This document shows positions 1,274-43,859 of a stretch of DNA of 64,000 nt, in pieces. The notes below the pieces were generated by a model that was not told the DNA's origin, did no database searches, and saw nothing but the letters and a program-made list of their open reading frames with translations. Position 1 is the first letter of the stretch. Every line of letters starts with the position of its first letter. The stretch is from NCBI GenBank assembly GCA_051362555.1, contig CM120647.1, positions 18,204,651-18,268,650 on the forward strand, given 5' to 3'. The translations under genes were made by a program, and so were the position numbers. Source of the stretch: Lingula anatina (taxonomy: Eukaryota > Animalia > Brachiopoda).

Positions 1274-4200
1274 TGTGTGTGTGTGCGTGTGTGTGTGTGT
1301 ATTTGTGTGAGTGTAGCCATGTGAGTGCGCAGTGGCGGATTTCGGAGGTGGGGTCAGGGGGGCTGTTTTCCCTCGATTTCTGAAAAAAATTACCTCTTGA
1401 AATTTGAATTTTGACTAGCTGAATCATAGTTCTAAACCGTACCAAATGGCACCGTTCGCCCTCTATATACCAAGAGTAGTATAAGTAAGTCGTTTTCGAC
1501 CTGCATTTTGGAACGGGGCTATATACTTTCAATGTAATTTTTTTTAGTGAACCTTGAACCTTTTACGGGGCAGTATAATTTTAATGTAATTTCTTAGTGA
1601 CCCCTGAAGCAGAAATGAGGCAAGCGAATTTTAATGACGATCATTTTAGTGTGAATGAGGGACGAGCAAATTCTAATAATGATTCAATAAAACCTAGTAG
1701 GAGTTTTTTTTTAAGAATAAATATAATTGTATAGCGAGCTAAGAAGCGTAAGGAAGGAGGTATTTCTTATGTAATTGTATAGCGAGCAAAGAAACGTAAA
1801 GGAGGGGTTTGTATGGTTATTTTTAGCTATATTTAATTTCAGGAGTTATTGGAAAAAGTTTTTGATTATTTATTTATTGAAAAGGCAATTTGGAACCCTT
1901 TTTTTCTAGAAATGCGCAGAAGAATGCGTTTGGTGCGCCCTCACCCGTCTCGTGTTTGTGAATATACAGCTGAATGCGCTAAGGCTTGCGTGAGCTAGAA
2001 ACCTCTTGAAAATACAATGCATCTAAGCGGTCTGGGCCAACCATGCAGAAAATTGATTTTGTCATTTCTGATGTCTCCTAGCTGACCCGTGATATGCTTA
2101 CAAAGGAAAGTTCTAGAATATTTTCGGGAATCATTGCAATAATTAAGACACAGAGGGAGTTTTAGAATATACTGGAACTTTGAAAAGTTTTTTTTTTTAA
2201 TATAAAAATCATAGACACCTAGGTTTCTGCACCTCACATACCGGCAATATATCAAAAGTATTATTGTATGCGCAGTGAACCTATGCAGTCTGCGCCAGCC
2301 ATGCGGTAAATTGATTTTGCTATCACTGATGTCTCTGAGCTGACCTGTGATATGTTCGCAAAGAAAAGTTCTAGAATATTTTGGGAAATATTGCAATAAG
2401 ACACAGAGGGAGTTTTAGAATATACTGGAACTGTGAAAAGTTTTTTTTTTTTTTTTGAAATATTAAAATCATAGACGCCTAGGTACATGCACTTCACATA
2501 CTGGTAACATATGAATATTATTTATTGTATGCGCAGTGCACCCAAGCAGTCTGCGCCAGCCATGCAATAAATTGATTTCATATGCTAGTACTGGCTATAT
2601 ATGAATAGTATTTGTTATACTACACACGTGCATCAGACCTAAGCGGCCTGTGCCAGCCATGCAATAAATTGATTTCATATACCTGGACTGAGAATATATC
2701 AATAGCATTTAATGTACAGGGTGTATTAGGTACTGCTTAACTCGTGTTAATACATCGTTCAAAAATTTGATCTGTAAAGACCCATTCTGCTCTGCGCTAT
2801 GCATGTGTTTTTCTCTGCACAAGCACTCTTATGAATTCTCATAAAAATATATATATATTTCGCATTTTAGAATTGTAAAATCTTATGAATTATGAAAATT
2901 GAAATCGTTACGAATATAAAACTCGAAATACGAATTCATACAATAAGTGAATTTTGGTATTTTGCATTTTTACAAAACGCAAATTTTGAATTGCACAATT
3001 TATTATTTCTTACGAATCTTATTTATTTTTCAAACGAAGTACTGTACCTCACAAAGCTTTTGATCACTACCGTGACCTTAGCCATTCGTTGTGAACATCA
3101 TCTCACATAAATCATTTTACTATGACCTATAAGTTTAATTTAGTTGTAGTATAATAGAAAATAAAATCAAACATGTAGAATTCATAACAGAAAATATAAT
3201 ATGTGTAATGTTGGTAATTGATATTTATATGAATAAAGAATGCGGAGACCTTTGTAGACTGACACGAAGAACGAAAAATGTACTGTGCTTTCTACTTCGC
3301 GTAGCAACTAAAGTGGAAGATCGTCACATGCTTCTATACACCACAATGGTGACACTTTGAATGGTACTGGTTGTATATGTTTGCTGACCAGCTTTCTGCA
3401 TTATTCGAGTAAAATGGGGACATGCCTGGACAACATTCACAATTTAAACAAAAAAATTTTCATATACATTTAAAGGTTCTTTCAAAGACTTTCTCTATGG
3501 CAATTTTTCCTTTATCCGTCAAAGCACGAGTGCCAACCCCGGCGAAATCATGTGTGAGTTCTGGCACACCTGGATATAATTTAAACATTCTTCGTACATC
3601 ATCATACTTGTACCATTGACATGATCCTTCCTCTCTCACAGTCCCCTCATTTTTAAAAGAATCAAAAACATAGACGAGTTTATTACTGTCCACTGCCAGT
3701 TGCACGGCCCATCCTGTTCCCCCATCCACCATTTTGTTCCCGACAATTTTTCCCACAGCAAAAACAGCATTGGAATTTTTCACCTGATACCAGTTACGTT
3801 GAAGTAAACGGTCAACAAAAGATTTGCCCGTGGGAAATCGTCTGCGTAGTGAAACATTGGCTTTTAACAAGTGCACATTAGAATCATTTAGTTCATTTTT
3901 ATTCAGAACTTTTCTAATACATGTCACTCCCGTTGGCCCCACCAGAATGGTTGACATACAAAGCTGGTGTGTTGACAGTTTGCTGTTGATTGAATATACT
4001 TTGAGTCAAATTTTAACTGTCGTCTGGAGATGACCCCCGTTCTTCTGCAGCTCTAAGCAGTTCTTTGTATTCGACATCCTGAGAATGAAATGAACTAGAC
4101 ATCTTCCTGTTTTTGCAGTGTGAATAAAAATGTTAACACAGCCTGGAATATGTGATGATAATCGGTTATTGCCTGGAAAAATGAATGGCCGTATGAAATG

Positions 4201-7200
4201 TTTAGCTGGAATGAAATTTCCAACGTAGACACAGAGCAATATTGTATTTACCTAGGGGAAATTATTTCCTTTAGCACGGCTGTCAGTGTGCAGAGTATTT
4301 ACTGAACGAGATAGACTTGGGATCAGCGAGACCTCCTTTGTTGTAAAGTCTCCTTATATTTTAGCGACTATAAACACTGTCAGCAACAGTAGACTTGAAT
4401 AGATGTGGTTCTGCTCGACGTGTAACATTGGAATATAAAATGCATATGCACAATAGTTTGTTGCCTGACAGGTGAAGTCAACCACGATGTCCAGCGCAGT
4501 CACAATGCGCTTAGTGAGAACCAAACACAGTGAGACTTAATGCCTCAACGGCGTCGAACGCAGTAACATCACATTGCAGTCTACGCTCGTCTAAAAAGAC
4601 CCTTCGTATTCAAACACACATAATATAAGATATTCTGTTGAGTCACGAATCTGGAATATTCCTATTATTTTCCGAATTTCAATAGAACATTCCATAACAT
4701 AATACTCAGAAAAGAGATCTGGGACATTCCTATTATCTTTTTAGCCGGTTTTAACTGGTTTTCGGATATTGTATAACCGCTTCTTAATCAACATTTCGAT
4801 AGACACGTTTTATTATACAATTAAAAAAAACATTCCATAGCATAATACTAAGAAAAAAGATCTGGAATATTCCTATTATCTTCGGAATTTCAATAGAAAA
4901 TTCCATAACATAATACTAATACTCGAATATTCCTATTATTTTCCGAATTTCAATAGAACATTCCATAAAATAATACTAAGAAAAGAGTTGAGGCACGGAT
5001 CTGGGACATTCCTATTATCTTTACAGCCGGTTTTAACCGTTATTTTATTTTATTATTATTATTTTTTTTTGAAAAAAGAAAATGTTGAGTAATTAATTTA
5101 CACTGCGTATACATATCCCGTAATTCAAAGGACACGGGCAGGCAAAATGGATCACTCAAAATTAGTGACAGTGAATTGGTCGCACATTTAGAACAGGTCA
5201 AAACCGAAAGCGACGTCCACCACTTACAAACTTTTGAAAAACAAGATTTTATTTTGCCAAAGATGGCCACTGTCTTATCGTTTAGTCACGGATATTGTTT
5301 ATTTTTTCTTTATTCAAAGGCCAAGTTTGAAATGATTTATTACATAATTATTTGAAGGAAAATTTCAAAGTCATCATGTTTTGCTGAAAGAATTACAGAG
5401 CCATTTTTTTTTTTTTTTTTTTGCCAAAGATGGCCATTGTATTATGGTTGCTATAATTCACTTCAAACATCAGTCCCCACTGTACCAGTGTTATGTACTA
5501 TGCTTGAAACAACCTGTAGGTAATTCTAATGATGACATTTCTGAGTTACGAGGTCTAAGGAATCTATTGCTCACTACTGTTTTTATCGTGTACGCTACTA
5601 CGACCAGTCCTAGGCTGATCAAAGCTCCTACGGTGCCAGTTAAACCTTCTGAAAAAATTAAAAACAAAAAAGTACGCAAATTAAGCAGTGTCATTTGTGG
5701 CTCAGCCACCGAATCATGTATGATTTAATTTATGTCAAAGTCTCTAGGTTCCACATAAGTAATTGTACTGCGTGTATTATATATATCTGATTAGTGTGAT
5801 CTACTCTTGAATTAAGTTTTACTAATCTTCACAACAAACAGTAAAGCACGCACTCGTCTCCACTGCACCATATTATGTACTGGTACTATGCGTAAAATGT
5901 CCTTGAAGTCTGCTTATGTAGGGAATTCTAATGATGACAGTTCTAAGTTACCAGGTCTAAGGGATCTATTGCTCATTATTGCTCGTTTTTATCTTGTACG
6001 CTGCCACAACTAGTCCTAGGCTGATCAAGCTCCTACGGTGATAGCTAAACCATCTGATAAAAATAGTAAAAATCAAAACATTGTATGCAAATTAAACAAT
6101 GTCATTCATGGCTCACATAAGTATTTGTACCGCTTGTATTATATATCTGATAAGTGTAAAACACGCACATTGTAGGAAACCTCTGAGTCACGAAGCTGGA
6201 ATATTCTTAAGACATAATATCTATTTTACTTATCTGGGATATTCTCTCTTTGTCAGTAGGAAAACGCAGAGTCACGGATCTGTAACATGTAGAATAATTT
6301 GGAATTATGAAAAAAATCTCCGTCTTTGCATAGAAATAATCAGACACGTCTGGGTATCATATGTTTGTCAAGCGGATTTGCAAATGTACAGAATAAATTA
6401 GTGTCTGGTACACACGCGTCTGTCAGGCGAATTTGCACATGTCAAAAGTATTTAGTGTTGAGGTGAAATGAATATTGTATTTGAACGGACAAAGCAGTCA
6501 GCTGGTATACTGCTGTTTAGCAATAATGAATGGCAAAATCTGTTTATTGACAAGGTAGAACACGGACATTTTACAATGTCATTACATCTTAGTGACACTC
6601 ACACAATGCATTATTTTTACTAACCATTTGGTCGTTCTTTTGTATCAATAAATCAGTTTATGGTTATTTATTTCAATATTTGTATGTTTAATAAGAACAT
6701 ACTTATAAACTGTGCAATTCAGTCATTGTCAACTGCACCATAGGTTGAGTTTTATGGACAGCAACTACGCGCCACAATATACTTTACAACAACAATATTT
6801 TTCTGCAAAAGGAATTTTATTCTGCTCACACGTAATACAACGAGTTGGATATGCGACCACAGTGTCCCCTGCTCTGTCTACCCTCAGTCGCTCCTTTGAA
6901 TGGCTCTGTTAGACCTACACGTCTACTTTCCTGACTATGAATGCGGCAAAACGCTACATTTTCATAATAACGAAATTAGGGTGACAGGTGGTTCATATCT
7001 CACGCCATGGTTAGATGTTTTGATCAACATTTACTTCATTATTAGAAACACTGATTCTCGACCTTCGACTTATAATTGTGATTTTCCCTGTTCTTTGATT
7101 ATCCGTATGCATTCTACAAAAAAGTGAATTTTGAATTGTAAATCTTATAAATTATGAAAACTGAAATGTTTAGAAAAATAAAGTTTAAAATACGAGTTCA

Positions 7201-10200
7201 TACAAAAAAGTGAATTTTGGCATTTTGCATTTTTACAAAACGCGAATTTTGAATTGCACAATTTATTAATACTAACGAACCTTATTTATTTTTCAAATGA
7301 AGTACTGTTCCTCACAAAGCTTTTAATCACTACCGGGACCTTCCTTATTTGCATCATCTCACATAAATCCTTTTACTAATGACCGATAAGTTTAATTAAG
7401 TTGCAGTAGAATAGAAAACAAAATCAAAGTAGATGCAGAACTCGTAACAGAAAATATAATATTTGTAATATTGATAATTGATATTTATATGAGTAAAGAA
7501 TGCAGAGACCTTTGTAAAATAGACTGACACGAAGAACGAAAATGTATTGTGGTTTCTACTTTTCGTAGCAACTAAGGTGGAAGATTACACTATCGCCACC
7601 AGCTTCTATACACCACAATGGTGACACTTTGAATAGCACTGAATGGACGGTTGTATTTGTTTGCTGACCAGCTTTTTGCGTTATTTGAGAAAAAAAGGGG
7701 GGGGGGCATGCCTGGACATGTCATGACTCCTCTTTCTTCAATCTTCCTCGTCAGGGGGACCCCCCAAAACTATGAAACGGAAAGGGACGGTAAAGGGGAA
7801 ATGGGTCTTCCTCGTCAGGGGGACCCATTTCCCCTTTATGCCCCCCCCCCCCTTTTTTTTCTCAAATAACGCAAAAAGCTGGTCAGCAAACAAATACAAC
7901 CGTCCATTCAGTGCTATTCAAAGTGTCACCATTGTGGTGTATAGAAGCTGGTGGCGATAGTGTAATCTTCCACCTTAGTTGCTACGAAAAGTAGAAACCA
8001 CAATACATTTTCGTTCTTCGTGTCAGTCTATTTTACAAAGGTCTCTGCATTCTTTACTCATATAAATATCAATTATCAATATTACAAATATTATATTTTC
8101 TGTTACGAGTTCTGCATCTACTTTGATTTTGTTTTCTATTCTACTGCAACTTAATTAAACTTATCGGTCATTAGTAAAAGGATTTATGTGAGATGATGCA
8201 AATAAGGAAGGTCCCGGTAGTGATTAAAAGCTTTGTGAGGAACAGTACTTCATTTGAAAAATAAATAAGGTTCGTTAGTATTAATAAATTGTGCAATTCA
8301 AAATTCGCGTTTTGTAAAAATGCAAAATGCCAAAATTCACTTTTTTGTATGAACTCGTATTTTAAACTTTATTTTTCTAAACATTTCAGTTTTCATAATT
8401 TATAAGATTTACAATTCAAAATTCACTTTTTTGTAGAATGCATACGGATAATCAAAGAACAGGGAAAATCACAATTATAAGTCGAAGGTCGAGAATCAGT
8501 GTTTCTAATAATGAAGTAAATGTTGATCAAAACATCTAACCATGGCGTGAGATATGAACCACCTGTCACCCTAATTTCGTTATTATGAAAATGTAGCGTT
8601 TTGCCGCATTCATAGTCAGGAAAGTAGACGTGTAGGTCTAACAGAGCCATTCAAAGGAGCGACTGAGGGTAGACAGAGCAGGGGACACTGTGGTCGCATA
8701 TCCAACTCGTTGTATTACGTGTGAGCAGAATAAAATTCCTTTTGCAGAAAAATATTGTTGTTGTAAAGTATATTGTGGCGCGTAGTTGCTGTCCATAAAA
8801 CTCAACCTATGGTGCAGTTGACAATGACTGAATTGCACAGTTTATAAGTATGTTCTTATTAAACATACAAATATTGAAATAAATAACCATAAACTGATTT
8901 ATTGATACAAAAGAACGACCAAATGGTTAGTAAAAATAATGCATTGTGTGAGTGTCACTAAGATGTAATGACATTGTAAAATGTCCGTGTTCTACCTTGT
9001 CAATAAACAGATTTTGCCATTCATTATTGCTAAACAGCAGTATACCAGCTGACTGCTTTGTCCGTTCAAATACAATATTCATTTCACCTCAACACTAAAT
9101 ACTTTTGACATGTGCAAATTCGCCTGACAGACGCGTGTGTACCAGACACTAATTTATTCTGTACATTTGCAAATCCGCTTGACAAACATATGATACCCAG
9201 ACGTGTCTGATTATTTCTATGCAAAGACGGAGATTTTTTTCATAATTCCAAATTATTCTACATGTTACAGATCCGTGACTCTGCGTTTTCCTACTGACAA
9301 AGAGAGAATATCCCAGATAAGTAAAATAGATATTATGTCTTAAGAATATTCCAGCTTCGTGACTCAGAGGTTTCCTACAATGTGCGTGTTTTACACTTAT
9401 CAGATATATAATACAAGCGGTACAAATACTTATGTGAGCCATGAATGACATTGTTTAATTTGCATACAATGTTTTGATTTTTACTATTTTTATCAGATGG
9501 TTTAGCTATCACCGTAGGAGCTTGATCAGCCTAGGACTAGTTGTGGCAGCGTACAAGATAAAAACGAGCAATAATGAGCAATAGATCCCTTAGACCTGGT
9601 AACTTAGAACTGTCATCATTAGAATTCCCTACATAAGCAGACTTCAAGGACATTTTACGCATAGTACCAGTACATAATATGGTGCAGTGGAGACGAGTGC
9701 GTGCTTTACTGTTTGTTGTGAAGATTAGTAAAACTTAATTCAAGAGTAGATCACACTAATCAGATATATATAATACACGCAGTACAATTACTTATGTGGA
9801 ACCTAGAGACTTTGACATAAATTAAATCATACATGATTCGGTGGCTGAGCCACAAATGACACTGCTTAATTTGCGTACTTTTTTGTTTTTAATTTTTTCA
9901 GAAGGTTTAACTGGCACCGTAGGAGCTTTGATCAGCCTAGGACTGGTCGTAGTAGCGTACACGATAAAAACAGTAGTGAGCAATAGATTCCTTAGACCTC
10001 GTAACTCAGAAATGTCATCATTAGAATTACCTACAGGTTGTTTCAAGCATAGTACATAACACTGGTACAGTGGGGACTGATGTTTGAAGTGAATTATAGC
10101 AACCATAATACAATGGCCATCTTTGGCAAAAAAAAAAAAAAAAAAATGGCTCTGTAATTCTTTCAGCAAAACATGATGACTTTGAAATTTTCCTTCAAAT

Positions 10201-13200
10201 AATTATGTAATAAATCATTTCAAACTTGGCCTTTGAATAAAGAAAAAATAAACAATATCCGTGACTAAACGATAAGACAGTGGCCATCTTTGGCAAAATA
10301 AAATCTTGTTTTTCAAAAGTTTGTAAGTGGTGGACGTCGCTTTCGGTTTTGACCTGTTCTAAATGTGCGACCAATTCACTGTCACTAATTTTGAGTGATC
10401 CATTTTGCCTGCCCGTGTCCTTTGAATTACGGGATATGTATACGCAGTGTAAATTAATTACTCAACATTTTCTTTTTTCAAAAAAAAATAATAATAATAA
10501 AATAAAATAACGGTTAAAACCGGCTGTAAAGATAATAGGAATGTCCCAGATCCGTGCCTCAACTCTTTTCTTAGTATTATTTTATGGAATGTTCTATTGA
10601 AATTCGGAAAATAATAGGAATATTCGAGTATTAGTATTATGTTATGGAATTTTCTATTGAAATTCCGAAGATAATAGGAATATTCCAGATCTTTTTTCTT
10701 AGTATTATGCTATGGAATGTTTTTTTTAATTGTATAATAAAACGTGTCTATCGAAATGTTGATTAAGAAGCGGTTATACAATATCCGAAAACCAGTTAAA
10801 ACCGGCTAAAAAGATAATAGGAATGTCCCAGATCTCTTTTCTGAGTATTATGTTATGGAATGTTCTATTGAAATTCGGAAAATAATAGGAATATTCCAGA
10901 TTCGTGACTCAACAGAATATCTTATATTATGTGTGTTTGAATACGAAGGGTCTTTTTAGACGAGCGTAGACTGCAATGTGATGTTACTGCGTTCGACGCC
11001 GTTGAGGCATTAAGTCTCACTGTGTTTGGTTCTCACTAAGCGCATTGTGACTGCGCTGGACATCGTGGTTGACTTCACCTGTCAGGCAACAAACTATTGT
11101 GCATATGCATTTTATATTCCAATGTTACACGTCGAGCAGAACCACATCTATTCAAGTCTACTGTTGCTGACAGTGTTTATAGTCGCTAAAATATAAGGAG
11201 ACTTTACAACAAAGGAGGTCTCGCTGATCCCAAGTCTATCTCGTTCAGTAAATACTCTGCACACTGACAGCCGTGCTAAAGGAAATAATTTCCCCTAGGT
11301 AAATACAATATTGCTCTGTGTCTACGTTGGAAATTTCATTCCAGCTAAACATTTCATACGGCCATTCATTTTTCCAGGCAATAACCGATTATCATCACAT
11401 ATTCCAGGCTGTGTTAACATTTTTATTCACACTGCAAAAACAGGAAGATGTCTAGTTCATTTCATTCTCAGGATGTCGAATACAAAGAACTGCTTAGAGC
11501 TGCAGAAGAACGGGGGTCATCTCCAGACGACAGTTAAAATTTGACTCAAAGTATATTCAATCAACAGCAAACTGTCAACACACCAGCTTTGTATGTCAAC
11601 CATTCTGGTGGGGCCAACGGGAGTGACATGTATTAGAAAAGTTCTGAATAAAAATGAACTAAATGATTCTAATGTGCACTTGTTAAAAGCCAATGTTTCA
11701 CTACGCAGACGATTTCCCACGGGCAAATCTTTTGTTGACCGTTTACTTCAACGTAACTGGTATCAGGTGAAAAATTCCAATGCTGTTTTTGCTGTGGGAA
11801 AAATTGTCGGGAACAAAATGGTGGATGGGGGAACAGGATGGGCCGTGCAACTGGCAGTGGACAGTAATAAACTCGTCTATGTTTTTGATTCTTTTAAAAA
11901 TGAGGGGACTGTGAGAGAGGAAGGATCATGTCAATGGTACAAGTATGATGATGTACGAAGAATGTTTAAATTATATCCAGGTGTGCCAGAACTCACACAT
12001 GATTTCGCCGGGGTTGGCACTCGTGCTTTGACGGATAAAGGAAAAATTGCCATAGAGAAAGTCTTTGAAAGAACCTTTAAATGTATATGAAAATTTTTTT
12101 GTTTAAATTGTGAATGTTGTCCAGGCATGTCCCCATTTTACTCGAATAATGCAGAAAGCTGGTCAGCAAACATATACAACCAGTACCATTCAAAGTGTCA
12201 CCATTGTGGTGTATAGAAGCATGTGACGATCTTCCACTTTAGTTGCTACGCGAAGTAGAAAGCACAGTACATTTTTCGTTCTTCGTGTCAGTCTACAAAG
12301 GTCTCCGCATTCTTTATTCATATAAATATCAATTACCAACATTACACATATTATATTTTCTGTTATGAATTCTACATGTTTGATTTTATTTTCTATTATA
12401 CTACAACTAAATTAAACTTATAGGTCATAGTAAAATGATTTATGTGAGATGATGTTCACAACGAATGGCTAAGGTCACGGTAGTGATCAAAAGCTTTGTG
12501 AGGTACAGTACTTCGTTTGAAAAATAAATAAGATTCGTAAGAAATAATAAATTGTGCAATTCAAAATTTGCGTTTTGTAAAAATGCAAAATACCAAAATT
12601 CACTTATTGTATGAATTCGTATTTCGAGTTTTATATTCGTAACGATTTCAATTTTCATAATTCATAAGATTTTACAATTCTAAAATGCGAAATATATATA
12701 TATTTTTATGAGAATTCATAAGAGTGCTTGTGCAGAGAAAAACACATGCATAGCGCAGAGCAGAATGGGTCTTTACAGATCAAATTTTTGAACGATGTAT
12801 TAACACGAGTTAAGCAGTACCTAATACACCCTGTACATTAAATGCTATTGATATATTCTCAGTCCAGGTATATGAAATCAATTTATTGCATGGCTGGCAC
12901 AGGCCGCTTAGGTCTGATGCACGTGTGTAGTATAACAAATACTATTCATATATAGCCAGTACTAGCATATGAAATCAATTTATTGCATGGCTGGCGCAGA
13001 CTGCTTGGGTGCACTGCGCATACAATAAATAATATTCATATGTTACCAGTATGTGAAGTGCATGTACCTAGGCGTCTATGATTTTAATATTTCAAAAAAA
13101 AAAAAAAAACTTTTCACAGTTCCAGTATATTCTAAAACTCCCTCTGTGTCTTATTGCAATATTTCCCAAAATATTCTAGAACTTTTCTTTGCGAACATAT

Positions 13201-15019
13201 CACAGGTCAGCTCAGAGACATCAGTGATAGCAAAATCAATTTACCGCATGGCTGGCGCAGACTGCATAGGTTCACTGCGCATACAATAATACTTTTGATA
13301 TATTGCCGGTATGTGAGGTGCAGAAACCTAGGTGTCTATGATTTTTATATTAAAAAAAAAACTTTTCAAAGTTCCAGTATATTCTAAAACTCCCTCTGTG
13401 TCTTAATTATTGCAATGATTCCCGAAAATATTCTAGAACTTTCCTTTGTAAGCATATCACGGGTCAGCTAGGAGACATCAGAAATGACAAAATCAATTTT
13501 CTGCATGGTTGGCCCAGACCGCTTAGATGCATTGTATTTTCAAGAGGTTTCTAGCTCACGCAAGCCTTAGCGCATTCAGCTGTATATTCACAAACACGAG
13601 ACGGGTGAGGGCGCACCAAACGCATTCTTCTGCGCATTTCTAGAAAAAAAGGGTTCCAAATTGCCTTTTCAATAAATAAATAATCAAAAACTTTTTCCAA
13701 TAACTCCTGAAATTAAATATAGCTAAAAATAACCATACAAACCCCTCCTTTACGTTTCTTTGCTCGCTATACAATTACATAAGAAATACCTCCTTCCTTA
13801 CGCTTCTTAGCTCGCTATACAATTATATTTATTCTTAAAAAAAAACTCCTACTAGGTTTTATTGAATCATTATTAGAATTTGCTCGTCCCTCATTCACAC
13901 TAAAATGATCGTCATTAAAATTCGCTTGCCTCATTTCTGCTTCAGGGGTCACTAAGAAATTACATTAAAATTATACTGCCCCGTAAAAGGTTCAAGGTTC
14001 ACTAAAAAAAATTACATTGAAAGTATATAGCCCCGTTCCAAAATGCAGGTCGAAAACGACTTACTTATACTACTACCAAGTTTTTTCATGGCCCTTCTGC
14101 GGCCCCGAATCCCAAACCACTGGGGGGTCAGCTATGTATCCCCGGATCCCCTTCAAATTATCCTGGATCCGCCCCTTGTGCGTGTGTCCTATTTGTCATA
14201 ACGTTTTCTTTTTACTTCAAGTTGAAAGTCATATAATCGTAAATGTAAGACTTTTTTATATTTTATTTTCTGTAATAACTAAAATGAAGGTTTGTCAATA
14301 AAAGGCATATTGAATTATTCTACTCTGTTTGTGTAAACCTCTGAACTCCGGTGTTAGTTCTAATACAGTCGTATTTTATTAATGATATAATGGTAAACAA
14401 AATAACATTATTAAACCAATCATGTTAATGATGGAGCAAGTCGTTAATAAAAAAACACACTGTTTGAGTATTTGTTATTTCAGATTCATTTGAAAATAAC
14501 CAACAGCTCGTTTTCAAGGAGTCCACTCATGCTATGAACCTGGAGGCAATACTGACGGTTTACCCAGACGCTCTCTTCATCAATACTTACCGTGATCCCT
14601 GCGAGGCAACGGCATCCAATATGTCTCTCTGTGAGGCCTGTATGATAAGTCTAGGGTATGAGCCAAAGGACATAGATTTAGGACTCATTGGCCAAGATAA
14701 ACTACGATGCCCGCTGGTCAACGGTGGTAATGAGATGGTGAAATTTCGAAAGAGTCACCCAGAAGAAGAACATCGATTTTGCGATGTAGATTACAAAGAT
14801 ATTGTTGGTTCTCCCATGTCTGTAGTGAAGCAAATCTACAAGTTTTTTGGTTTGAGGTTGACATCGGAAGGGGAAGCCAAGATGAGCGCCTATGTCAGAG
14901 AACATCCTCAAAACAAATATGGCCGCCATAAATACGATTTGAAGCGCTATAAGATGACAGAGGAGGAAGTGATGGAATATCTTAAAGAATATGTTGGATT
15001 TTATAAATCACGACAATAA
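415..15019 (+). CDS. Sulfotransferase (Sulfotransfer_3-like), copy 1, 5'-partial. Exons 415-598, 998-1234, 14484-15019; exon 1 lies upstream of the window
   Basis: 5'-PSB motif PIFIIGPARSGTT, 3'-PB motif TYRDP..A..S and C-terminal KYGRHKY. All junctions are GT-AG, and exon sizes 184/237/536 nt match the other three copies. Intron 3 is about 13.2 kb because of the palindromic insertion. Confidence 0.9.
1235..1312. repeat. (GT)n microsatellite beginning at the intron 3 donor
   Basis: Direct observation; equivalent runs begin at 19239, 24379 and 30999. Confidence 0.95.
2019..2690. repeat. Diverged tandem repeat in the left arm (about 260-bp unit twice, plus two shorter partial units); mirrored at about 12860-13530
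   Basis: Recurring GCCA(A/G)CCATGC..(T/A)AAATTGATTT near 2036, 2295, 2555 and 2652; GACACAGAGGGAGTTTTAGAATATACTGGAACT occurs twice. Confidence 0.85.
3460..3957 (-). CDS. 165-aa intronless phage/virus-like protein, probable SLOG (DprA/YpsA-related) fold; left-arm copy
   Basis: Motif order RNWYQVKNSNAVFAVG - VDGGTGWAVQLA - KLVYVFD - FAGVGTR - GKIAI resembles, from recall only, SLOG-like domains in bacteriophage proteins. No database search was run. Confidence 0.6.
   Translation of the reverse strand: MSTILVGPTGVTCIRKVLNKNELNDSNVHLLKANVSLRRRFPTGKSFVDRLLQRNWYQVKNSNAVFAVGKIVGNKMVDGGTGWAVQLAVDSNKLVYVFDSFKNEGTVREEGSCQWYKYDDVRRMFKLYPGVPELTHDFAGVGTRALTDKGKIAIEKVFERTFKCI
4641..5040. repeat. Cluster of about 60-75-bp imperfect repeats (ATATTCCTATTATTTTCCGAATTTCAATAGAACATTCCATAACATAATACT); mirrored at about 10510-10910
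   Basis: At least three full and two partial units are visible. Confidence 0.85.
7710..7837. other. 128-bp asymmetric spacer at the palindrome axis with a 17-bp perfect stem-loop and a 21-bp direct repeat
   Basis: Stem 7791-7807 pairs with 7822-7838, loop 14 nt; TCTTCCTCGTCAGGGGGACCC at 7742-7762 and 7806-7826. Confidence 0.9.
11593..12090 (+). CDS. 165-aa phage/virus-like probable SLOG-fold protein; right-arm copy
   Basis: Translation identical to 3460-3957 on the minus strand. Confidence 0.6.
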   Translation: MSTILVGPTGVTCIRKVLNKNELNDSNVHLLKANVSLRRRFPTGKSFVDRLLQRNWYQVKNSNAVFAVGKIVGNKMVDGGTGWAVQLAVDSNKLVYVFDSFKNEGTVREEGSCQWYKYDDVRRMFKLYPGVPELTHDFAGVGTRALTDKGKIAIEKVFERTFKCI

Positions 15020-16443: not shown

Positions 16444-19400
16444 ATGCCAGATTTTCAAGATCTAAACGCTTTTTGCCTCCCATATTTCCATATATTGCTG
16501 GATTGGGTGTACCGCATCGTGTTTCGAACCAGACTGAGTCCTCTCACGGAGGAAAGTCTGTGGAGAAAATTCACCATAGACGAGAGAAGAGTTATTCTGT
16601 CTGAAGACCTCACTCGTCGATGGTGGTACGAAGGATTTTGTTTAATTTTGAAGTGTTACCGCGAAGACGAAGCGTTATCTGTGGCAGGGAGGAAGGTTGT
16701 TGAAACAAGATGTACCGAAGTTCTTCAAAACAGACTCGCCATATCCAGACGTCTGGCGTCTGTTGACGTATCGAAGGTCAGTATTTAACAGAGTTCATTT
16801 GAAGTCCTTTTAATCGAATGTTTCCCCTTTAGAACAATATTGACAAAAGAATGCACAGTGAGCATCAAAATTTTAAAGGTTGCGTGTTTAATAGCGTGTG
16901 TGTCTACTGCATACTGCACTTACTGGAGGCAGCTCAGCATGCTTTCCACAACAGTTACAGGTCTGTTTTGGGGGATAATGTCCTTTTCTTCCTGAAGAGC
17001 TTCTAGTAGGCGGTTTTCATCCAGAATATGAGGGGGTAGATTCAGTGCATAGTCACGATGAAGCTGGTGGTCACCCCAGAAGGCAGAGGTTCTCCATTCA
17101 TACACATGTTCACCTTTTTTTTTCTTTGTGCTGACCTTCATGCTTGTCCTGTTAGTAAACAACGTCCTTAACACATTAACATCCTATTGTCATACGATGT
17201 CATGAATGAAAATAATCAAACACAAGCCGAAAATCTCTCATACCGTTAGCTCTCATTTTAGCTCACTTAAAATGCCATTTGCATATCAACAAAATAGCAA
17301 ATTTGGGCATTCTGGTGATAAATAGGCCTACAAACCACGTCATTCACTGACCTTTAAATCTCTAACTTAAAGAGAAAAGCAGCGGGGTGACCAGACAAAG
17401 CCTTGTGTGGTACCTACACTACACTCAAAGCAATCCGTCAGACCAGCAGGTATGTGTACTTAGGGTAAAATGTATCCTAACGCTTTTTATATTTTCTCCG
17501 TGTATGCCATAATTAGTTAGCCAATACCACAGTTATGCATTCACTATCTTATCGAAGGCTTTCGAGAAATCTGCGTATAATAGGTATATATAGTACCCCA
17601 CCTCCTTTAGAGAGAGATTTTTCCTTAATAGCATTTACTGTAAATATCTGGTCAAAGGTTGACCGTCGTGTCCTAAATCCACAAACTTCGCTAAAACAAA
17701 TACAAAAGCAACACTGACTTGAATGTCATTTTACTTCATTTTTGAGCAAATTAATAAACGATTGCTTGTAATTTTGGTAAGTATTCTGCTACACGCAATC
17801 AATAGGAATTTTTCTCAATATTTATCCTTCTGTGATATTTGCTTTTGAATGGGACAAAGCACCGCCTCCATCCATCTCTCAGGGTATATATACTCCCAGG
17901 CTAAGATTCTGTTGAACAGCAGAATGTGAAACATAAAAGGTAGTGAGTCCTGATAATACTCTACACTAATACCGTCAGCCCCAGAAACCTTTTTATTTTT
18001 CAATATTTTTACTGCATTGGTTATTTCTACCGTTTCAATTTCGTGCTGCTAATTGTGTATAAACTTGGTGACATAAGTCGATAACTTTTTAATTTTATGG
18101 ACATTTTTCCTCCGTGAAACGTCATATTCAGAGGGGATTAATGCACGTTTTTTTATTTGAGTAAATGACTTTGAATATACATATCTTCACTGGTGAATAT
18201 TCTTTACCGCAGGTCACAATATATATCTATCTGTCCCTTCATCAACTCAGACGCCCTAACTTTCAACCCCCACCCATCAACAACTTATTGTATTTGTAAT
18301 ATCAGAGCTGTTTGACGAAGGCTCAATATATGATGAATCAAAATTTAAAAGGCAGAAAACATGTTTATTTCACAGGAGCCAAAGAAAATAATATTTTAAC
18401 GCCATCATTAATCGTTGCAGTGTCAGATCAAGAAACCCATATTCATCATTGGACCGGCTCGTTCTGGGACGACATTCCTTCTGAATCTACTATACGAGGA
18501 TCCTGGTAACACTTCACCCAGATTTTACGAGACGATGCACCCCGTGGAGGAGGTGACGGTAGAGGGGAAAGAACGAAGACTTATGACCGAACAACGAGCA
18601 TTAGGTATTCTCATTTTCTGTTTTAAATCCAAAAAATGGCTACATAATAAAATAAAGGTAGAGCGCTTTAGCTACTCGTACGTTGCCATCCCATTGTAAA
18701 CTTTAAAGAGATAATTGGCGATTGTATTGTTTTTTTTTCTATCTGTAGTTCTTTAGGCTTAATGTCTAACTATTTTTAAAGATTTCGATTTTTAGGAGGA
18801 ATACTTAGCAAAATGTCCAAGTTAAATCTTTGAATGGGGCTTGTGTCTTTTCTTTTTATCTGCTTCTGTGTTTGATAATAAGGTGGATACATGTACTTAG
18901 TGTGATCATTTACAATATCCGCCTTTTTCCCAAATAAAAAATGCCTTTTCAACCGTACTTAAATGTTAGATTTATATTAAATTCTCTTGTTTTATACATA
19001 GCCGCGGTTTACGAGGAGATGCCGGAAATGAAAGCTCAGCATTACATACACGCTGAAAGAGCGTACGAGTGCTACCATCTGATGGACCAAATGGGGCTCT
19101 TTAAGAACTTCCGGTTTGTCACAGGGAACTTCCAGGAATACGAGACATGGCAAAAAACGCTGACCAAGGAACAAATGGTTGAAGTTTACCGATTCCATAA
19201 ATTGCAAGTGCAACTCATCCTTTTGGCAAGAAGCAAAGGTGTGTGCGTGTGTGTGTGTGTGTGTGTGCGTGTGTGCGTGGGCACGGGTTTGTGTTTCATT
19301 TGTCGTAGGGTATCCTTTCAACTTCAGAACCTCTACTTAAAGATGATTACTGAAACATATGTCTCGCAAAAAAGACGCTGAACTGTCTTAACTGTGAGAA

Positions 19401-20066
19401 ATGCTTTTGTGTAAATCTTTGACATACAGTCTTAGATCTTGCATGCAAAAGGTTAAACGAAATGTAGCAGCATTAAATTCTGATATCTATCAGGCTTATT
19501 ATAGAGCCAATTTAATATGTGTATTTCTAGATTCCCTGGAAAATAACCAACAGCTCGTTTTCAAGGAGTCCACGCATGCTATGAACCTGGAGGCAATACT
19601 AAAGGTTTACCCGGACGCCCTCTTCATCAATACTTACCGTGACCCCTGCGAGGCAACGGCGTCTGTAAGCTCTTTATGTGAGAACTTAATGATAAGTCTA
19701 GGATTTAAACCAAAAGACATAGATTTAGGACTCATTGGCCAAGATATGCTTCGATCCCCGCTGATCAACGGTGGAAATGAGATGGTGAAATTTCGAAAGA
19801 GTCGCCCTGAAGAAGAGCATCGATTTTGCGATATTGATTACAAAGATATTGTTGCTTCCCCCATGTCTGTAGTGCGTCAAATCTACAAGTTTTTTGGTTT
19901 GAGGTTGACATCGGAAGCGGAAGCCAAGATGAGTGCATACGTCAAGGAACATCCGCAAAACAAATATGGCCGCCATAAGTACGATTTGAAGCGATATAAG
20001 CTGACAGAAGAGGAAGTGATGGAACATCTTAAAGATTATGTCGAATTCTATAAATCACGACGTTGA
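16444..20066 (+). CDS. Sulfotransferase copy 2, complete, 429 aa. Exons 16444-16776, 18421-18604, 19002-19238, 19531-20066
   Basis: Open spliced frame of 333+184+237+536 nt with GT-AG junctions; GPARSGTT and YRDP motifs. Confidence 0.92.
17815..18030 (-). mobile_element. Degenerate LINE reverse-transcriptase fragment in intron 1 of copy 2
   Basis: KNKKVSGADGISVEYY...LFNRIL...YPERWMEAVLCPIQK matches the region just upstream of non-LTR RT domains. Confidence 0.75.
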
Positions 20067-21765: not shown

Positions 21766-24700
21766 ATGCCAGGTTTTCAAGATATATATGCGTTTTGCCT
21801 CCCATATTTCCATATTTTGCTGGACTGGGTGTACCGGGTTGTGTTTCGGACCAGACTGAGTCCTCTCACGGAGGAAAGTCTGTGGAGAAAATTCACCGTC
21901 GAGGAGCGAAGGGTTATTCTGTCAGAAGACCTCACTCGTCGATGGTGGTACGAGGGATTTTGTATTCTTTTGAAGTGTTACCGCGAAGACAAAGCGTTGT
22001 CTGTGGCAGGGAGAAAGGTTGTTGAAACAAGATGGACCGAAGTTCTTCAAAACAGACTTGCCATATCCAGACGTCTGGCATCTGTTGACATATCAAAGGT
22101 CTGTGTTTTACAATATTCGTGATCTAAGGCCCCATTCAGAGCGAGAAGAGCCGAGTGCTAGCCAGGTCGCGACTTAAATATGGCGGACCTACATGAAAGT
22201 AAGGCCGCTTAATCCTGTAATGGTCTCTCCGCCTCTCACATGCCTCCTGTCGCGTCGTCCCTGCAGGGGCACAGTAATTAAATCTCGAGATTCGACGCGA
22301 GGGGAGGCGTTTGAGAGGCGGAGAGACCATTAAAGGATTAAGCGGTCTTCTTTTCATGTAGGTCCGCCATATTTAGATTGCGGCCTAGCTAGCACTCGGC
22401 TCTTCTCGATCTGAATGGTCCCTATGCCTGGGTTCCCATCTCTTGATCGATCTAACAGGATCAGTCCATCTCCACGTGCACGGGGTCCCTCGCCAAGTTG
22501 CTTTCAGCTCATGTGGCTTATATGTCTGGGACGCCCACTAAAGCCTCAAAACGATAGTTAATTACCCCTATTAGCTTCAGAAGGCATGACAGACATCCAA
22601 GCCGCTCAAGTTAATTGCAATTAAGCGAGAATCCCCCTGGAGATAGTTTAACCCAAAGTTAGTACGATAGAGTCTGGGAATGGTCTCTTAGTTCAACATT
22701 TTTATTCGCCTTGTATTAATCCCCAATCGGGGGTACGTCGAGTAGGTAGACGGTAGGTGTTAAGACAGGAAGTACGCTAAAAATTATGTCTGGCAGGGGA
22801 CGCAGTCCCGCTGATTACGTGAATCGCACTTGGTGCCATACATTTTTGTAACAGGGTACTATAGCGCACCCTGTGGTCTGACAGCAACTCAAGTCAAGAT
22901 TGCGAGTGGGAGTGGGATGTGAGTGCGGCCCTGCACAGACAATGTTACTTAAAGAAATAACAACTCTTCGTATGAGATCCATATTCCACAATAAATGCGT
23001 TGTAAACAACAGACAGAAATATGACAGATTTCATTTTACCACCAAATAATGGTTATGGTAAATATTTTGGTAGCTGTTTTTGCCATCAGACCACGTAGAC
23101 ATTCACAGATGATTATACCTTCGTTATCATCTCTTAAGATATTAATACAAATACAAAATTTTAAGAAAACATGGACTTACTGTATATATGGTAAATTATC
23201 AAGATATTTTGGTGAAGGGTCGAAATATCATGCGTAATAATAAGATTCACCTCCACAATTAATCTCTTTCGAGTCGATTTACTACTGTTATTGATCCTTA
23301 TACACAAGACGCAGCGAAAAAGGTCTTGACGTGAAATCTTTTATCATTGAACAGTGTCAGATCAAGAAACCCATATTCATCATTGGACCGTGTCGCTCTG
23401 GGACAACTTTCCTTCTAAATCTTCTGTACCAGGATCCGAGTAATACGTCACCCAGATATTACGAGACGATGCACCCTGTGGAAGAAATTATCGTAGGAGG
23501 CAAGGAACAGAGACTTCTGACCGAACAACGAGCGTTAGGTATTCCCATCTTCTTTGTCTAAAATGTAGAAAACAAAAATAAGCTGGCCACAAAATGAAAG
23601 GAATGTTAATGTGTTAGCTATGAAGGTTCGCCATTTTGGATACATTTGGCGAAATGTCCAATTTGAAGGTTAAGCAAATACTTTTCTTATGATGCTTTGA
23701 CAACTATTTTTTATATTTTATAAATCACCACTACTAAAATACCTGAAAAATGAAAACTGGAACTATACAACGGGTTCATAGCTCGTAATTCTGTGAATGG
23801 CTTTACATAATTGCCTTGGTAATTAGGTTGAAATTTCCAGGAAATTATACTTTAGAACACAAAATGTTAACACTCATGAAGTGTAAACAAAACAATGTAT
23901 TCACTGATGGCTCAGTAAGATATTGCTCTCCCTTCATCGGCACGAATGGAATTCGCCTAATCATCTTTTAAAATGAGACTTCTGTATATCCTTTTCCTAT
24001 CTCCAGGATTTAAAAGCAAAGTGCATATATCTGCCAAGAATCCAAGAATTCTCACTTACAACATTTGCCTACACCCCCCCCCCCCTCGCAAAAAAAAATC
24101 GCTAACAATTGACTTCTATCACCCCTTCTTGTTTTATATAGCCACGGTTTACAAGGAGATGCCTGAAATGAAAACTAAGCATTACATACACGCTGACATG
24201 GCGTACGAGTGGTACCATCTGATGGACCAAATGGGGCTCTTTAAGAGCTTCCGGTTTTTCACAGGGAACTTCCAGGAATACGAGGAATGGCGAAAAACGC
24301 TGACCAAGGACCAAATGGTGGAAATTTACCGATTCCATAAATTACAAATGCAACTCATCCTTTTGGGAAGAAGCGGAGGTGTGTGTGAGCGTGTGAGTGT
24401 GTGCATGCCTGCCTGTGTGTGTGTGTATGTGTGTGTGTGTGTGTGTGTGTTTGCGTGTTCTATTTGTCGTAAAATATATATTTAACTTCAAAATCTTCCA
24501 ATCTCTACTAACAGATTTTTTAATTTCCATGACTGCTGAATCATATGTCTAACAAAAAAAGACGCTGAACTGTGTCTTAACTGTGCTAAATGCTTTTGTG
24601 TAAACCTTTGAAATGCAGTCTTAGATCGTTAACAACCGTATGCATGCATACCTGTGAATGCAAAATGTTAAACAAAATAGCAATGCAATGCTAATGTTTG

Positions 24701-25285
24701 AGCGAATTTTAAAGTAAAACATAAAATGTTAATATATGTCTAATTCTAGATTCCCTGGAAAATAACCAACAGCTCGTTTTCAAGGAGTCCTCCCATGCTA
24801 TGAACCTGGAGGCAATACTGAAGGTTTACCCGGACGCTCTCTTCATCAACACTTACCGTGATCCCTGTCAGGCAACGGCGTCTATAAGCTCCCTATGTAA
24901 ATCATATATGAGAAGTCTAGGGTTTGAGCCAAAGGACATAGATTTAGGAATTATTGGTCAAGATATGCTTCGATCCCCACTGATTAACGGTGGAAATGAG
25001 ATGGTGAAATTTCGAAAGAGTCACCCTGAAGAAGAGCATCGATTTTGCGATATTGATTACAAAGATATTGTTGGTTCTCCCATGGCTGTAGTGAGGCAAA
25101 TCTACAGGTTTTTTGGTTTGAGGTTGACATCGGAAGCGGAAGCCAAGATGAGCAGTTTTATCAGGGAACGCCCTCAAAACAAATATGGCCACCATAAGTA
25201 CGATTTGAAGCGATATAAGCTGACAGAAGAGGAAGTGATGGAACATCTTAAAGAATATGTTGAATTTTATAAATTACGACGATGA
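21766..25285 (+). CDS. Sulfotransferase copy 3, complete, 429 aa. Exons 21766-22098, 23355-23538, 24142-24378, 24750-25285
   Basis: Same exon sizes and phases as the other copies; GPCRSGTT and YRDP motifs. Confidence 0.92.
22128..22422. mobile_element. Fold-back MITE (TIRs about 120 bp) in intron 1 of copy 3
   Basis: GGCCCCATTCAGA...TCTGAATGGTCCC; absent from the equivalent intron of copy 4; core shared with 43416-43715. Confidence 0.85.
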
Positions 25286-33176: not shown

Positions 33177-34328
33177 GGGTTTTTATGTAGAACTTATAAT
33201 TTATTAATTATCCGAGATTTACGTGCAACCGTCATCCACCCGCAGCCTTCTTTTTAGTATTCGTTTACATAAGCCGTGAATATACCAGTAGAAACCATAC
33301 AACTTGACAAACAGGTACCGGTACATATACAGAAAGAAATACGCTGATTTGAAAGCTGTTGCCAATAGTTCCATATGCATGCATATTTGATGTTTTTTAT
33401 ACTGGCATACACGACTAATGTTTAAAATCTGCAATTCCTAAGGCAGTCTACGCGTCTTGAAGACCACATTTCGTGTCATGCAGACATAAAAGAGGATTAA
33501 TGCTGCACGAGATAAGTTTTTTTTCTTAAGAATCCTTTCCCACAAACAAGTGCCAGAACCAAAGAGATTACTGAGGTAAGGATAGCCTTGAATTGCGTTG
33601 AAGTTCACAGATTGTCGAGATACTGTTAGTTGTGTAGATATCAGTTATGGTTATGTTTGTTTGTAATAAATCTCCACGATATAAATAAGTCTAAAGCCGT
33701 TAAAAGGTGCAGGCCCTTAACTACTATGTGCACCAAGACCTATAGCCAGCAACTTCAAACATTTTAATTGTGGACATTTTCCATGAGACCTTTGTGTATC
33801 GAGATCAATTTTTACTTTTACCCGATGGTTAGTTTGAACCCCCCCCCCCCACCCCCCCACCCCCAAAAAAATAAAATAAAAAAAATAAAAAAAAATAAAA
33901 AAATAAAATAAAAAAAAACAGCTTACGGGCCTGCTACATGCATAGATAATCATAATCTGGAGCTGAAACTGACAAATTCGGTTACTGTGGCATCGGCTAT
34001 TGGGTTGGCCGTCCAGGATTAATTTCAAATCAAAATCTTTATTTGACCACTCAATACAATAGGAGGATTTGATATAATCTTCTGTTCCTCTTCGTGGCTT
34101 GAAGGTGATGACAAGGAAAAAATATGACTCTAGAAATTTCAATTTCAAATAAAAAGGGAATCACATCCAAGTGGAATTCTGAATGAGACATTCTTTTTAC
34201 GATCGATTTTTGAGCGTCATCGTGTTTCTTCTGTAAAACATTACCTCCTCCACGATCATTTCAAATGTCGTAAAGCAAAGAGAGCTACGTATCTTCATTT
34301 TGAAACAAAGTTTTTTGATATGCCTTAA

Positions 34329-39787: not shown

Positions 39788-42700
39788 CAGCAACTGACAA
39801 TACATTTTCTTACAGACAAATTGTATACCGACCGATACGTGTACCATGGGTAAGGTCCCCAAACACAACGTCAACTGCTATAAAACAAGGCCATCAAAAG
39901 TATCCAATTATAAAACCGGCTGAAATACGGACATTAACAAGCACATCGTCATCGGACATCTACAACGTCCGCAAGTCGTCTTATGACAACACAGCAGCTG
40001 GTACCCAAACGAAGACTATTCCTTATAAGGGCCCTGGATATGTTCAAGTTGGCAGCCAACATGTAAACTATAATAACACGAAGACGGCTGATAGTACAAA
40101 AACTACCGATTCTTCAAGATCTCCAGCAAACACTTCGCAGGGTTATGGTGAACCATGCACTGGGAAAGACGCATTTAAAGGGCCCTGTGCATGTGTCAGG
40201 TTTCCCGATCACGACTTACCTGGCTCAGTGCTGTACAGTTTGCCGGGGTCTGGAAACACGTGGACACGATTTTTGTTGGAGCAGGCATCCGGTATGTTTT
40301 CTTTATCCTTTTTTGATTAGTTTTCTTTAAAGGGTGTTTTTCAATGTGGATTTAGCTGGTAAAATGAAAGACTCAGAAAAACTTTACCTGCACAATAATT
40401 GGAAGTGGAATTGTTTAGAACCGTTTAACAAGGAGACATGTTTAATGAGGAGACACGTAATCGGTTGGCCTTTGCACATAATGCTGGAGAATGCAATGAG
40501 AATCCAATGAAAATTTGAGCCTGAAAAGTGCCTTTTTTGTCAAGTAGCAAATTCTTTTTTTTAGGGGGGTCCTGACACCTTCCCCCCCCCCCCACCCCCC
40601 TTCGATTTCTGAAAAAAAAAATCACACTTATGGTGCCGTCTTGAAATTAGAATTTTGACTATAGCTGATCATATAGTTCTAAACCATACCAAATGGCGCC
40701 GTTCGCCCTCTTAAATACCAAAAATTTTCGGGGCCCGAACCCAATGCCAAGGGGGGTGGGGGTGGGGGGAGGGTGGGCTTTGCATCCGCTGACACCCTCT
40801 TCAAATAATCATGGATCCGCCCCTGTTGTCTATTTCATTTCATTTAAAAATCTTAGTCTGTTCTGTTCCATTGGATTTTATAAAATGTTAATGATATACA
40901 AATATATTTTGATCGGAAAGGGGGTGGGAGTGTAGGACAAAGGAGGTACAAACTAGGCTTAAGAGCAAGCAACTTAATCATGTTTTTTCCTTCATATAAT
41001 AATAATTATTATTTTATTATTTACACACAATAAGCCATGGTCCCTTACAGTATGCGTAACCGTGCAACATCGTCTTTTTACTTAAAATCAATAGGATAAT
41101 TCGACAGATCTAACTTCACACTTTTTACAAATAACTATATCAGCATTATCAGTCTTTTTTTTTAAACCTTTGATTCATCCCTTTTTTAACGTATGGAACA
41201 GGTTACTTCACTGGAAGCTTCTACAATGATGAAGAGCTTAAAAACGGTGGCTTTTTAGGCGAATCTAGGGCGGACAACAGGGTTTTTGCCATTAAATCTC
41301 ACAGGCTTCTCGCAAAATCGCTGAAGATGCGTATTGCAGCTAGTAATCGACCTATTGAAAAAGTCGTTGTCCTTCTACGCGACATGTACCAGGCCGCTGT
41401 CAGTGACATACAGAGACGCCTCACGAGCGGGTCTCACACTGCCACGGCGGATTTCAATACGAAAGGCAAGTTAGGAATGATCTGCGCATGCGTTACTTTG
41501 CTATGGAATGCAAACATGTACGGTGTCTTTGAGTGTTTAGCGTTTACCCTGGGACCCAAAGTATAGGACCCGAATTATCTTCTATTGCCGTGTTGTTTTA
41601 TTTAATATAGCCAGCTCTCTTTCTAAAAATCGGTAATATTTTTATTTCAATATCGTGTAAGCCTCATAAAGTCTGAAAAAGAAAGCAGTGTGAAACAACC
41701 TTTTCATTTCAATACCTTGTAAGCCTTATGAAGTCCGAAAAAAGAAAGCAATCTAAAAGAACCTATGACTTAATTAGTAATCATATAATTTGTATTTTAC
41801 TGTCCAGCAGCTGTTCAAAGCTATGTCCACAATTTGCACAGCTGGGCCAACAAAAGAACTCTGGAATGGATTTCGCAGCGGAAAATGTCCATATTCATTC
41901 TACGGTAGGTATTCCACGGTGCAACGGAAGTAGATTCTCTACCAAAAAAAGTATTTTTCCTTCTCACGAATCGTCACTCGGCCCTTCCCTGCCCTTAGAT
42001 TTGACATTGTATTCAGTTGTATTATTAAAGGGATAATAACTGTTCGTTTGGGACAAAAAATTAATTTTCCTGGAGTGAACAGCAATTTTCCCATACTTAC
42101 CTATGGTTAATGAATCCATTTCTACATTCAAAGTTAGTCCCTGTTTTTTTTTTTTTTTTCTAAAAAGTTTTTTTTTATTATAATCCCTTAAGAAATTATT
42201 GCAGAGTATAGCCATCAATGGAGGTCACGTGGTCTAAAGACATGCTTAGATATCAGAATAATAGCTATAACCGCTGTTTTTGTGATAAAACAGAATATAT
42301 TATATTTCTATGAGTTGTTCACAATGTTTTTATTGTGAAATATAGATCGTATACGAAGAGTTATTGTCCCTTTAATGAGGCATGCCATTTAGAACGTCAA
42401 GTCTTCTTGTACATTTTGTAAGGAACTATCGACGTCTGATGCTTTTATTTGCGGGGATAAAGGTTTTATTTTAGGTCTGAAGTGGGAAATAGATTTGTCG
42501 GATATGTAGACATACAAAATGTGACAAGCGCAGACCTTTTAATGTATCTTATTCTCACGTATGCACATGTAAAATGTACAGAGATAAATAGAACAGAGTA
42601 ACAATGTTACACGAATCTGCAATCGTATTCAACTTTGTAGCGCGATGAACCCTAGTAGTGGGAGTGTTGTTTATGCATGTAAACGCTATTAAGTGATAGA

Positions 42701-43369: not shown

Positions 43370-43415
43370 CTTCAGGAGCTAGGGGATCTCGATTTAGTTG
43401 ACATCGCACTCAATG

Positions 43416-43715
43416 ATAGCATTCACAACGAGTTGAGCCAGGCTTTACAAATCCTGGGGACTAAATATGGCGGTCGTACATGAAAGAAAAACCGCCTAAT
43501 CTTTTAATAGTCTCTCCGCCTCTCACACGCCTCCCCACACGTCGTCCCTGCGGGGGAACAGTCATTAAATCTCGGCTCCATTGGGACGACACATGGGGAG
43601 GCGTGTGAGAGGCGGAGAGACTATTAAAAGATTAGGCGGTTTTTCTTTCATGTACGTCCGCCATATTTAGTCCCCAGGATTTGTAAAGCCTGGCTCAACT
43701 CGTTGTGAATGCGAT
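43416..43715. mobile_element. Fold-back MITE (TIRs about 125 bp) just downstream of the WSCD-like stop codon
   Basis: Near-perfect inverted arms, flanked by direct repeat CAATG (43411-43415 and 43716-43720). Confidence 0.88.
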
Positions 43716-43859
43716 CAATGTTTGCTCTCTTGCATAAATGTTTATCCTCAAAATCCCATCAGAATCTGTTTATTTTAGACACCTTGTACACAAACAAACC
43801 AACACTAACGAAAGCACAGCCTCCTGCGTTGATGGGGAAAAAATAAAAGCACATATAAG

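Follow-up and report, generated by a model that had tools for sequence, protein, structure and literature searches.

What produced the hairpin and the direct repeat that occupy the axis of a long palindrome in the genome of the brachiopod Lingula anatina? The palindrome lies in a stretch of 64,000 nucleotides (hereafter the window; GenBank assembly GCA_051362555.1, contig CM120647.1, positions 18,204,651 to 18,268,650 of the forward strand), and all coordinates below count from the first letter of this stretch. An earlier note, made from the letters alone, took the two features for the product of successive short template switches that preceded the long fold-back, or else for a functional turnaround or resolution site. 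The analysis presented here suggests that they are probably the scar of one out-and-back template switch, made in an element that was, in all likelihood, already palindromic.

A mirror-image element with Polinton/Maverick-type ends

The palindrome is a 12.6-kb mirror-image element, likely a non-autonomous Polinton/Maverick derivative; its parts are listed in Table 1. Its two arms differ by no substitution, and the 4 gap columns in their alignment all fall in 3 homopolymer runs. When flanking words of k = 3-11 were compared, the flanks matched exactly at k = 6 only, a match with a chance of 1 in 5120 by composition and of 4.9e-4 empirically. The end motif occurs at 52 of 51,395 positions outside the element. 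Elsewhere in the window, a paralogous copy of the host repeat lacks the insertion: the left flank aligns to it up to 40721 and the right flank from 40717, the overlap being the target-site duplication (TSD), present there as a single target copy. Taken together, the TSD, the (AGT)2//(ACT)2 ends and the empty paralogous site indicate an inserted element and not an assembly fold-back.

Mavericks have been mapped by an end motif, (AGT)2//(ACT)2 or (AG)3//(CT)3, combined with a perfect 6-bp TSD (accessible text of PMC8097293). The 5'-(AGT)2//(ACT)2-3' ends, the 6-bp TSD and the inverted-repeat ends, each of which was found in the feature tests, are the traits that the element shares with Polintons/Mavericks as portrayed in the available portions of PMC8097293, PMC10748475 and PMC4196379. 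Its length lies within or just below the range excerpted for that group (12.7-24.6 kb). Its inverted repeats, in contrast, measure 6.2 kb and make up 99% of its length, against 46-1,447 bp in the part of PMC8097293 available. Unlike an autonomous Polinton/Maverick, the element gave no Pfam match above cut-off to PolB, integrase, ATPase, protease or capsid in any of 84 stop-to-stop frames of at least 36 aa within 1475-7840; the same scan returned one weak, unrelated match (E 0.042). As 1475-7840 thus gave no match to a protein-primed PolB, a retroviral-like integrase or a capsid module, the element is not classed as an autonomous member of the group. A search of viral contigs with its terminal 18-mer gave 0 matches.

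The sole recognisable gene of the element is a broken DprA-like cargo gene, which matches phrog_768 (E=3.7e-6). Its closest protein (P0001), named from Lingula anatina, is 82% identical over 150 aa; 21 homologs were found among 31 candidates, and relatives from phages and metagenomes are numerous, their identities being 35-54%. A phage-type gene is thus carried aboard an animal mobile element. We also sought a helper by way of this gene, comparing the left arm with 80 viral and 80 metagenome loci by BLASTN and TBLASTX, and only the cargo gene matched; no autonomous helper came to light. Besides the duplicated unit given in Table 1, the arm contains tandem and dispersed repeats at 2018-2578 (a 258-bp unit), at 4832-4984 (a 60-bp unit) and at 5515-5704 / 5917-6115 (a pair of about 200 bp). 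As to the host setting, a small host repeat encloses the element, apparently within the last intron of a sulfotransferase gene (PF13469) that belongs to a tandem array; this gene copy lies at about 960-1230 and 14488-15019, and its paralogs near 19000-20066, 24000-25285 and 30700-32090.

Table 1. Positions of the element, its insertion site and the features of its axis in the window
Feature	Position	Strand	Basis or remark
Palindromic element, 12,600 bp	1475..14074	.	Self-BLAST; ends and TSD; empty paralog
Left arm, 6,235 bp	1475..7709	+	Alignment against right arm
Right arm	7838..14074	-	Self-BLAST and piecewise identities
6-bp target-site duplication, left copy	1469..1474	+	Exact match
6-bp target-site duplication, right copy	14075..14080	+	Exact match
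End motif (AGT)2	1475..1480	+	Mirror (ACT)2 at 14069-14074
Paralogous host repeat without insertion	40599..40910	+	Empty site at about 40717-40722
Broken DprA-like cargo gene	3466..4102	-	One stop, one frame break; mirror 11448-12084 on +
Internal duplicated unit, second copy	7128..7718	+	First copy 2864-3432; about 590 bp, 83% identical
G10 run after A7	7697..7706	+	Mirror is C12 at 7841-7852, then T8
Inner stretch, arm in other copies	7710..7762	+	Contigs on 7714-7762, both strands, X1/X3/X6
First copy of the direct repeat (the 21 nt of the family arm nearest the axis)	7742..7762	+	Inverted/direct-repeat search
Loop of the simpler family axis, 40 nt, varying between copies	7763..7802	+	Joint 7762/7802
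5' arm of the 17-bp stem	7791..7807	+	Inverted-repeat search, piecewise identities
Right-arm remnant, 5 nt	7803..7807	+	Mirrors 7758-7762; two derived axes exit here
Probable templated inverted insert, 33 nt	7806..7838	+	Direct-repeat copy 2 (7806-7826) overlapping stem 3' arm (7822-7838)

The hairpin and the direct repeat exceed chance

Both flagged features are present as described: the perfect 17-bp stem pairs 7791-7807 with 7822-7838, the exact 21-bp direct repeat (7742-7762 / 7806-7826) overlaps its loop, and neither can be extended. The stem does adjoin the right arm, base 7838 being both the last of the stem and the first of the arm. Of 1000 dinucleotide shuffles of 7710-7838, 0 matched the 21-nt direct repeat, the longest being 14, and 0 matched the 17-bp stem, the longest being 11. 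A set of 386 genuine 129-nt segments from outside the palindrome included 12 with a direct repeat of at least 21, 4 with an inverted repeat of at least 17 and 3 with both. DNA folding of the axis gave z = -3.6, with 0 of 200 shuffles folding equally well. These results confirm both features and place them outside what chance would produce. Another hairpin, imperfect and of pyrimidine/purine type, is predicted to pair about 7728-7744 with 7775-7789.

The surroundings of the axis had also been commented on. The start of the spacer does continue the repeat unit near 3421-3432, as proposed (7702-7718 against 3416-3432, 16 of 17 identical), and ends the duplicated unit; its contiguity with the left arm is borne out by an X1 contig that is exact over 7650-7742. 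The long G and C runs on either side exist (10 versus 12 nt) but are not two separate features, since they occupy mirror positions of the arms. G4Hunter scores for the run are high (1.68 and -2.52). A deletion driven by a G-quadruplex was set aside, the G run being kept in both arms, contrary to the pattern expected of such a deletion. Straddling the boundary between arm and spacer is a 20-mer, 7704-7723, that departs by one mismatch from a p53-type motif of two half-sites. With up to 2 mismatches allowed, this motif has 5 matches in the window, of which 7704-7723 is the best; weaker ones lie at 3418 and at its mirror, 12113.

Related copies carry several forms of the axis

We compared the axis with contigs from five of the 11 public runs listed (X1, X2, X3, X6 and X9). 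The matches listed comprise 21 of 29 pieces and 24 of 34 loose ends, and contig depths were not taken as copy numbers. Cover in X2 ends at about 7774 and X9 has none, so that neither run tests the axis and X9 is no evidence of absence; word shares are small in X8 (0.14) and in X9 (0.10).

In X1, X3 and X6, that is in 3 of the 5 runs and in two studies, we found a simple axis, in which 7762 and 7802 are joined on opposite strands with 5 ambiguous letters. Its arms reach 7762, 53 nt further than those of the window, and enclose a 40-nt loop; in record 4 of X1, for example, 7714-7802 on the plus strand is followed by 7762-7714 on the minus strand. Record 17 of X6 shows another simple axis, whose loop is not the same. 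This reference form is made up of contigs of related copies and is neither an ortholog nor a known allele of the locus in the window. Measured against it, only the last 5 bases of the inner stretch keep a mirror in the window.

The junction that makes the hairpin was found, among the matches listed, in one of the five runs, X3. A 143-nt contig of that run (depth 9.29) is exact over 7739-7827, which confirms the left junction; the assembly may itself derive from X3. The right junction, 7838/7839, is masked as repeat from 7828, its sole support being the length of the X3 contig, which would place its end at 7881 against an expected 7883. Over 7804-7827 there is no depth in X1 or X6, both of which have simple fold-back axes. 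The earlier note had raised the question whether other palindromic copies share the axis: the axis with the 40-nt loop is shared by X1, X3 and X6, and among the matches listed from the five runs the hairpin form occurs in X3.

Two other derived axes were observed. Record 9 of X3 exits at 7807 and joins right-arm-like sequence through a 4-nt microhomology, near 8170 or 12427 (the placement is ambiguous). In the other form, 7644-7712 is replaced by 35 letters that derive from the loop and from the beginning of the mirror arm; this joint was found in X1 and X6, and a loose end in X3. The axis therefore rearranges repeatedly, the form in the window being accompanied by two other derived ones. Several distinct axis contigs occur within X3 and within X6; they do not include the ends of the element, and the runs may be pools. 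None of 5 loose ends among the matches listed (21 of 29 pieces) has the loop running into DNA outside the element.

In the simple-axis contigs the loop differs from the window more often than the adjacent stem (7 of 40 versus 0 of 49 positions in record 4 of X1, Fisher p 0.003; 7 of 41 versus 1 of 49 in record 8 of X3, Fisher p 0.02), counts that assume that the differences fall in the loop, come from two non-independent copies and may be inflated by run-length shifts.

The hairpin and the direct repeat are probably the scar of a single out-and-back switch

Set against the simple axis, the flagged sequence resolves into copies of its neighbours. The 33-nt insert consists of 7806-7826, identical to 7742-7762, and 7827-7838, the reverse complement of 7791-7802; by the same piecewise identities, 7803-7807 is the reverse complement of 7758-7762. 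As a whole, the insert is the arm-loop junction of the family on the other strand, and it stands where 48 nt of the right arm would be, with a net loss of 18 nt. Microhomology amounts to 2 nt on its left and 1 nt on its right, lengths that carry little information. The four-point test for switch order 3-1-2-4 found the new fragment to be exactly the reverse complement of reference sequence close by, a copy that yields an inverted repeat with an inverted spacer. The direct repeat results solely from the inclusion of 21 nt of the arm in what was copied. Hence two switches account for both the hairpin and the direct repeat, and the series that had been envisaged is not called for. A simple intrastrand snap-back is ruled out by the 14-nt loop of the small hairpin, which is inverted relative to the family axis.

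The events probably ran as follows. A linear DNA derived from a Polinton would have folded back on a 5-bp inverted repeat (7758-7762 / 7803-7807) to give the simple axis, which the protein-primed polymerase and the integrase of a helper Polinton would then have propagated. Later, in one lineage, the growing strand would have come off its template 5 nt beyond the loop and, by way of the 2-nt microhomology, resumed on the opposite strand; after copying 33 nt backwards it would have returned through 1 nt to the right arm 48 nt further on, in the order 3-1-2-4. Such an exchange would have widened the asymmetric centre from 40 to 128 nt and made the palindrome less fragile; spacers are reported to lower palindrome fragility (PMC7999016, in the part available).

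The strongest argument for a fold-back that came first is provided by the 7644-7712 form: its insert passes the 5-bp repeat into the mirror arm, so that the template was already palindromic. The earlier note was thus right to invoke template switching, but the order that it gave is most likely to be reversed, related copies being fold-backs already. One observation does not fit as easily. An exit within 7803-7807 is common to two derived axes, which random damage to the centre does not predict. This shared exit is the chief argument for a fold-back that came last, or else for a preferred nick or stall site.

Setting, order and origin of the switch

We judge it slightly more likely that the switch took place while the element was free and replicating than after it had entered the chromosome. 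The chromosomal course, in which the extruded centre would have been cleaved after integration and rejoined by host end-joining with templated synthesis (of the centre-break, SD-MMEJ or polymerase theta type), is a possible one that we somewhat doubt; its probability forms part of that given to a template switch after the fold-back. It has a well-documented precedent in a 15.4-kb palindrome in mice, whose centre is rearranged in about 35% of offspring and is stabilised 25-fold by asymmetry (PMC8701086, as far as the available text goes), and which resembles the present case in its recurrent, small, symmetry-breaking rearrangements of the axis. All 3 derived axes gain asymmetry here, with 1-4 nt of microhomology, and alternative end-joining is described as making use of hairpins and loops that lie no more than 30 nt from the break (accessible part of PMC5728401). 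The mouse case, in contrast, is a chromosomal, spacer-less transgene with mostly plain deletions (93% of the rearrangements in cultured cells; PMC8701086, same portion), whereas we deal with a natural mobile element that started from a 40-nt loop and in which 2 of the 3 derived axes carry templated inserts. It is on this difference that our leaning towards the free element is based. The inverted spacer, moreover, excludes a simple intrastrand snap-back as the chromosomal route.

A bolder extension, which we put forward as unlikely but worth stating, is that palindromic Polinton satellites replicate as giant snap-back hairpins, with the 3' foot of the loop (7803-7807) as a preferred stall or nick site where the strands synthesised from the two identical ends come together. 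That Polintons replicate via single-stranded, folded intermediates, with a protein-primed polymerase, is itself a proposed model (PMC4196379, in the part accessible). If the extension were true, the shared exit, the fast-diverging loop and the inserts copied from the junction would be a natural record of Polinton replication intermediates.

The order given in the earlier note would have a non-palindromic parent stall at 7807 and make the present axis in a single event, by slipping back 64 nt, folding on the 5-bp repeat for 12 nt and jumping to 7709 to copy the whole arm, the simple axis having arisen independently out of that parent too. This is mechanically possible, with microhomologies of 2, 5 and 1 nt, and the simple axis, the axis in the window and record 9 of X3 all exit compatibly with 7805-7807. 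We nevertheless consider it improbable: it demands three switches, and the junction common in 3 of the 5 runs would have had to be created independently once more; the loose ends listed include no parent that runs on beyond the loop, and the 7644-7712 variant shows that a palindromic axis itself spawns templated inserts.

A chimera created in the library or the assembly, whether confined to the small insert or embracing the entire palindrome, is very improbable. The arms, with homopolymer-length differences and no substitutions, and the right junction, masked in the reads, are what such an artefact might leave; rejoining the host flank at a TSD for which an empty paralog exists would not be expected of it, nor would fold-back axes in 3 runs of 2 studies and a left junction that is exact in an X3 contig. 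The least credible explanation holds that the 17-bp hairpin is a signal under selection, serving the element for turnaround or resolution, for despite its stable fold (z -3.6) and its position exactly at the axis, it is fully accounted for as a copy of neighbouring sequence, 3 of the 5 runs carry palindromic axes that lack it, and the sequence 7804-7827, without depth in X1 and X6, is represented by the one X3 contig (depth 9.29).

Relation to known systems

Kapitonov and Jurka reportedly described, in 2006, a hairpin-like non-autonomous Polinton of about 11 kb from zebrafish, consisting almost entirely of inverted repeats, and are said to have attributed it to template switching during extrachromosomal synthesis. 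We know of no population of axis variants for the hairpin-like Polintons of zebrafish. A literature search by name for palindromic or non-autonomous Polintons brought up, in the text portions returned, only Tlr1 elements, a result that makes no claim of absence from print. Wholly palindromic elements are not described in the available portions of PMC6431247, PMC3014272, 10.1101/2025.02.07.637071 and 10.64898/2026.07.28.741278.

The switch itself is of a type that is already known. In the classification of Loytynoja and Goldman (2017; PMC5453318, excerpted), type 3-1-2-4 is an inter-strand class that leaves an inverted repeat around an inverted spacer, and types 3-1-2-4 / 1-3-4-2 make up 23% of human-chimp template-switch events. 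The insert resembles these in being one nearby reverse-complement fragment copied between strands. It differs from the events of PMC5453318, as far as the excerpt shows them, in that the reference is itself a giant palindrome, so that a direct repeat results as well, and in that this reference is drawn from related copies and not from an ortholog.

The flagged hairpin is an ordinary product of a short template switch and is not conserved. Its value lies in the setting: the palindromic derivative is young, and its centre has undergone at least three rewritings. Should the derived axes prove common across insertion sites, the switches would have occurred in the free element and would report on its polymerase; should they be alleles specific to the locus, they would represent a natural revision of a palindrome centre in an animal genome.

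Other features of the window

Self-BLAST of the window also revealed smaller and more diverged inverted repeats, probably MITE-like, at 29054-30310, 43411-43720, 22132-22418 and 34326-35091. An exon of a rhodopsin-family GPCR (PF00001, E=1.1e-12) lies on the minus strand at 61081-61722.
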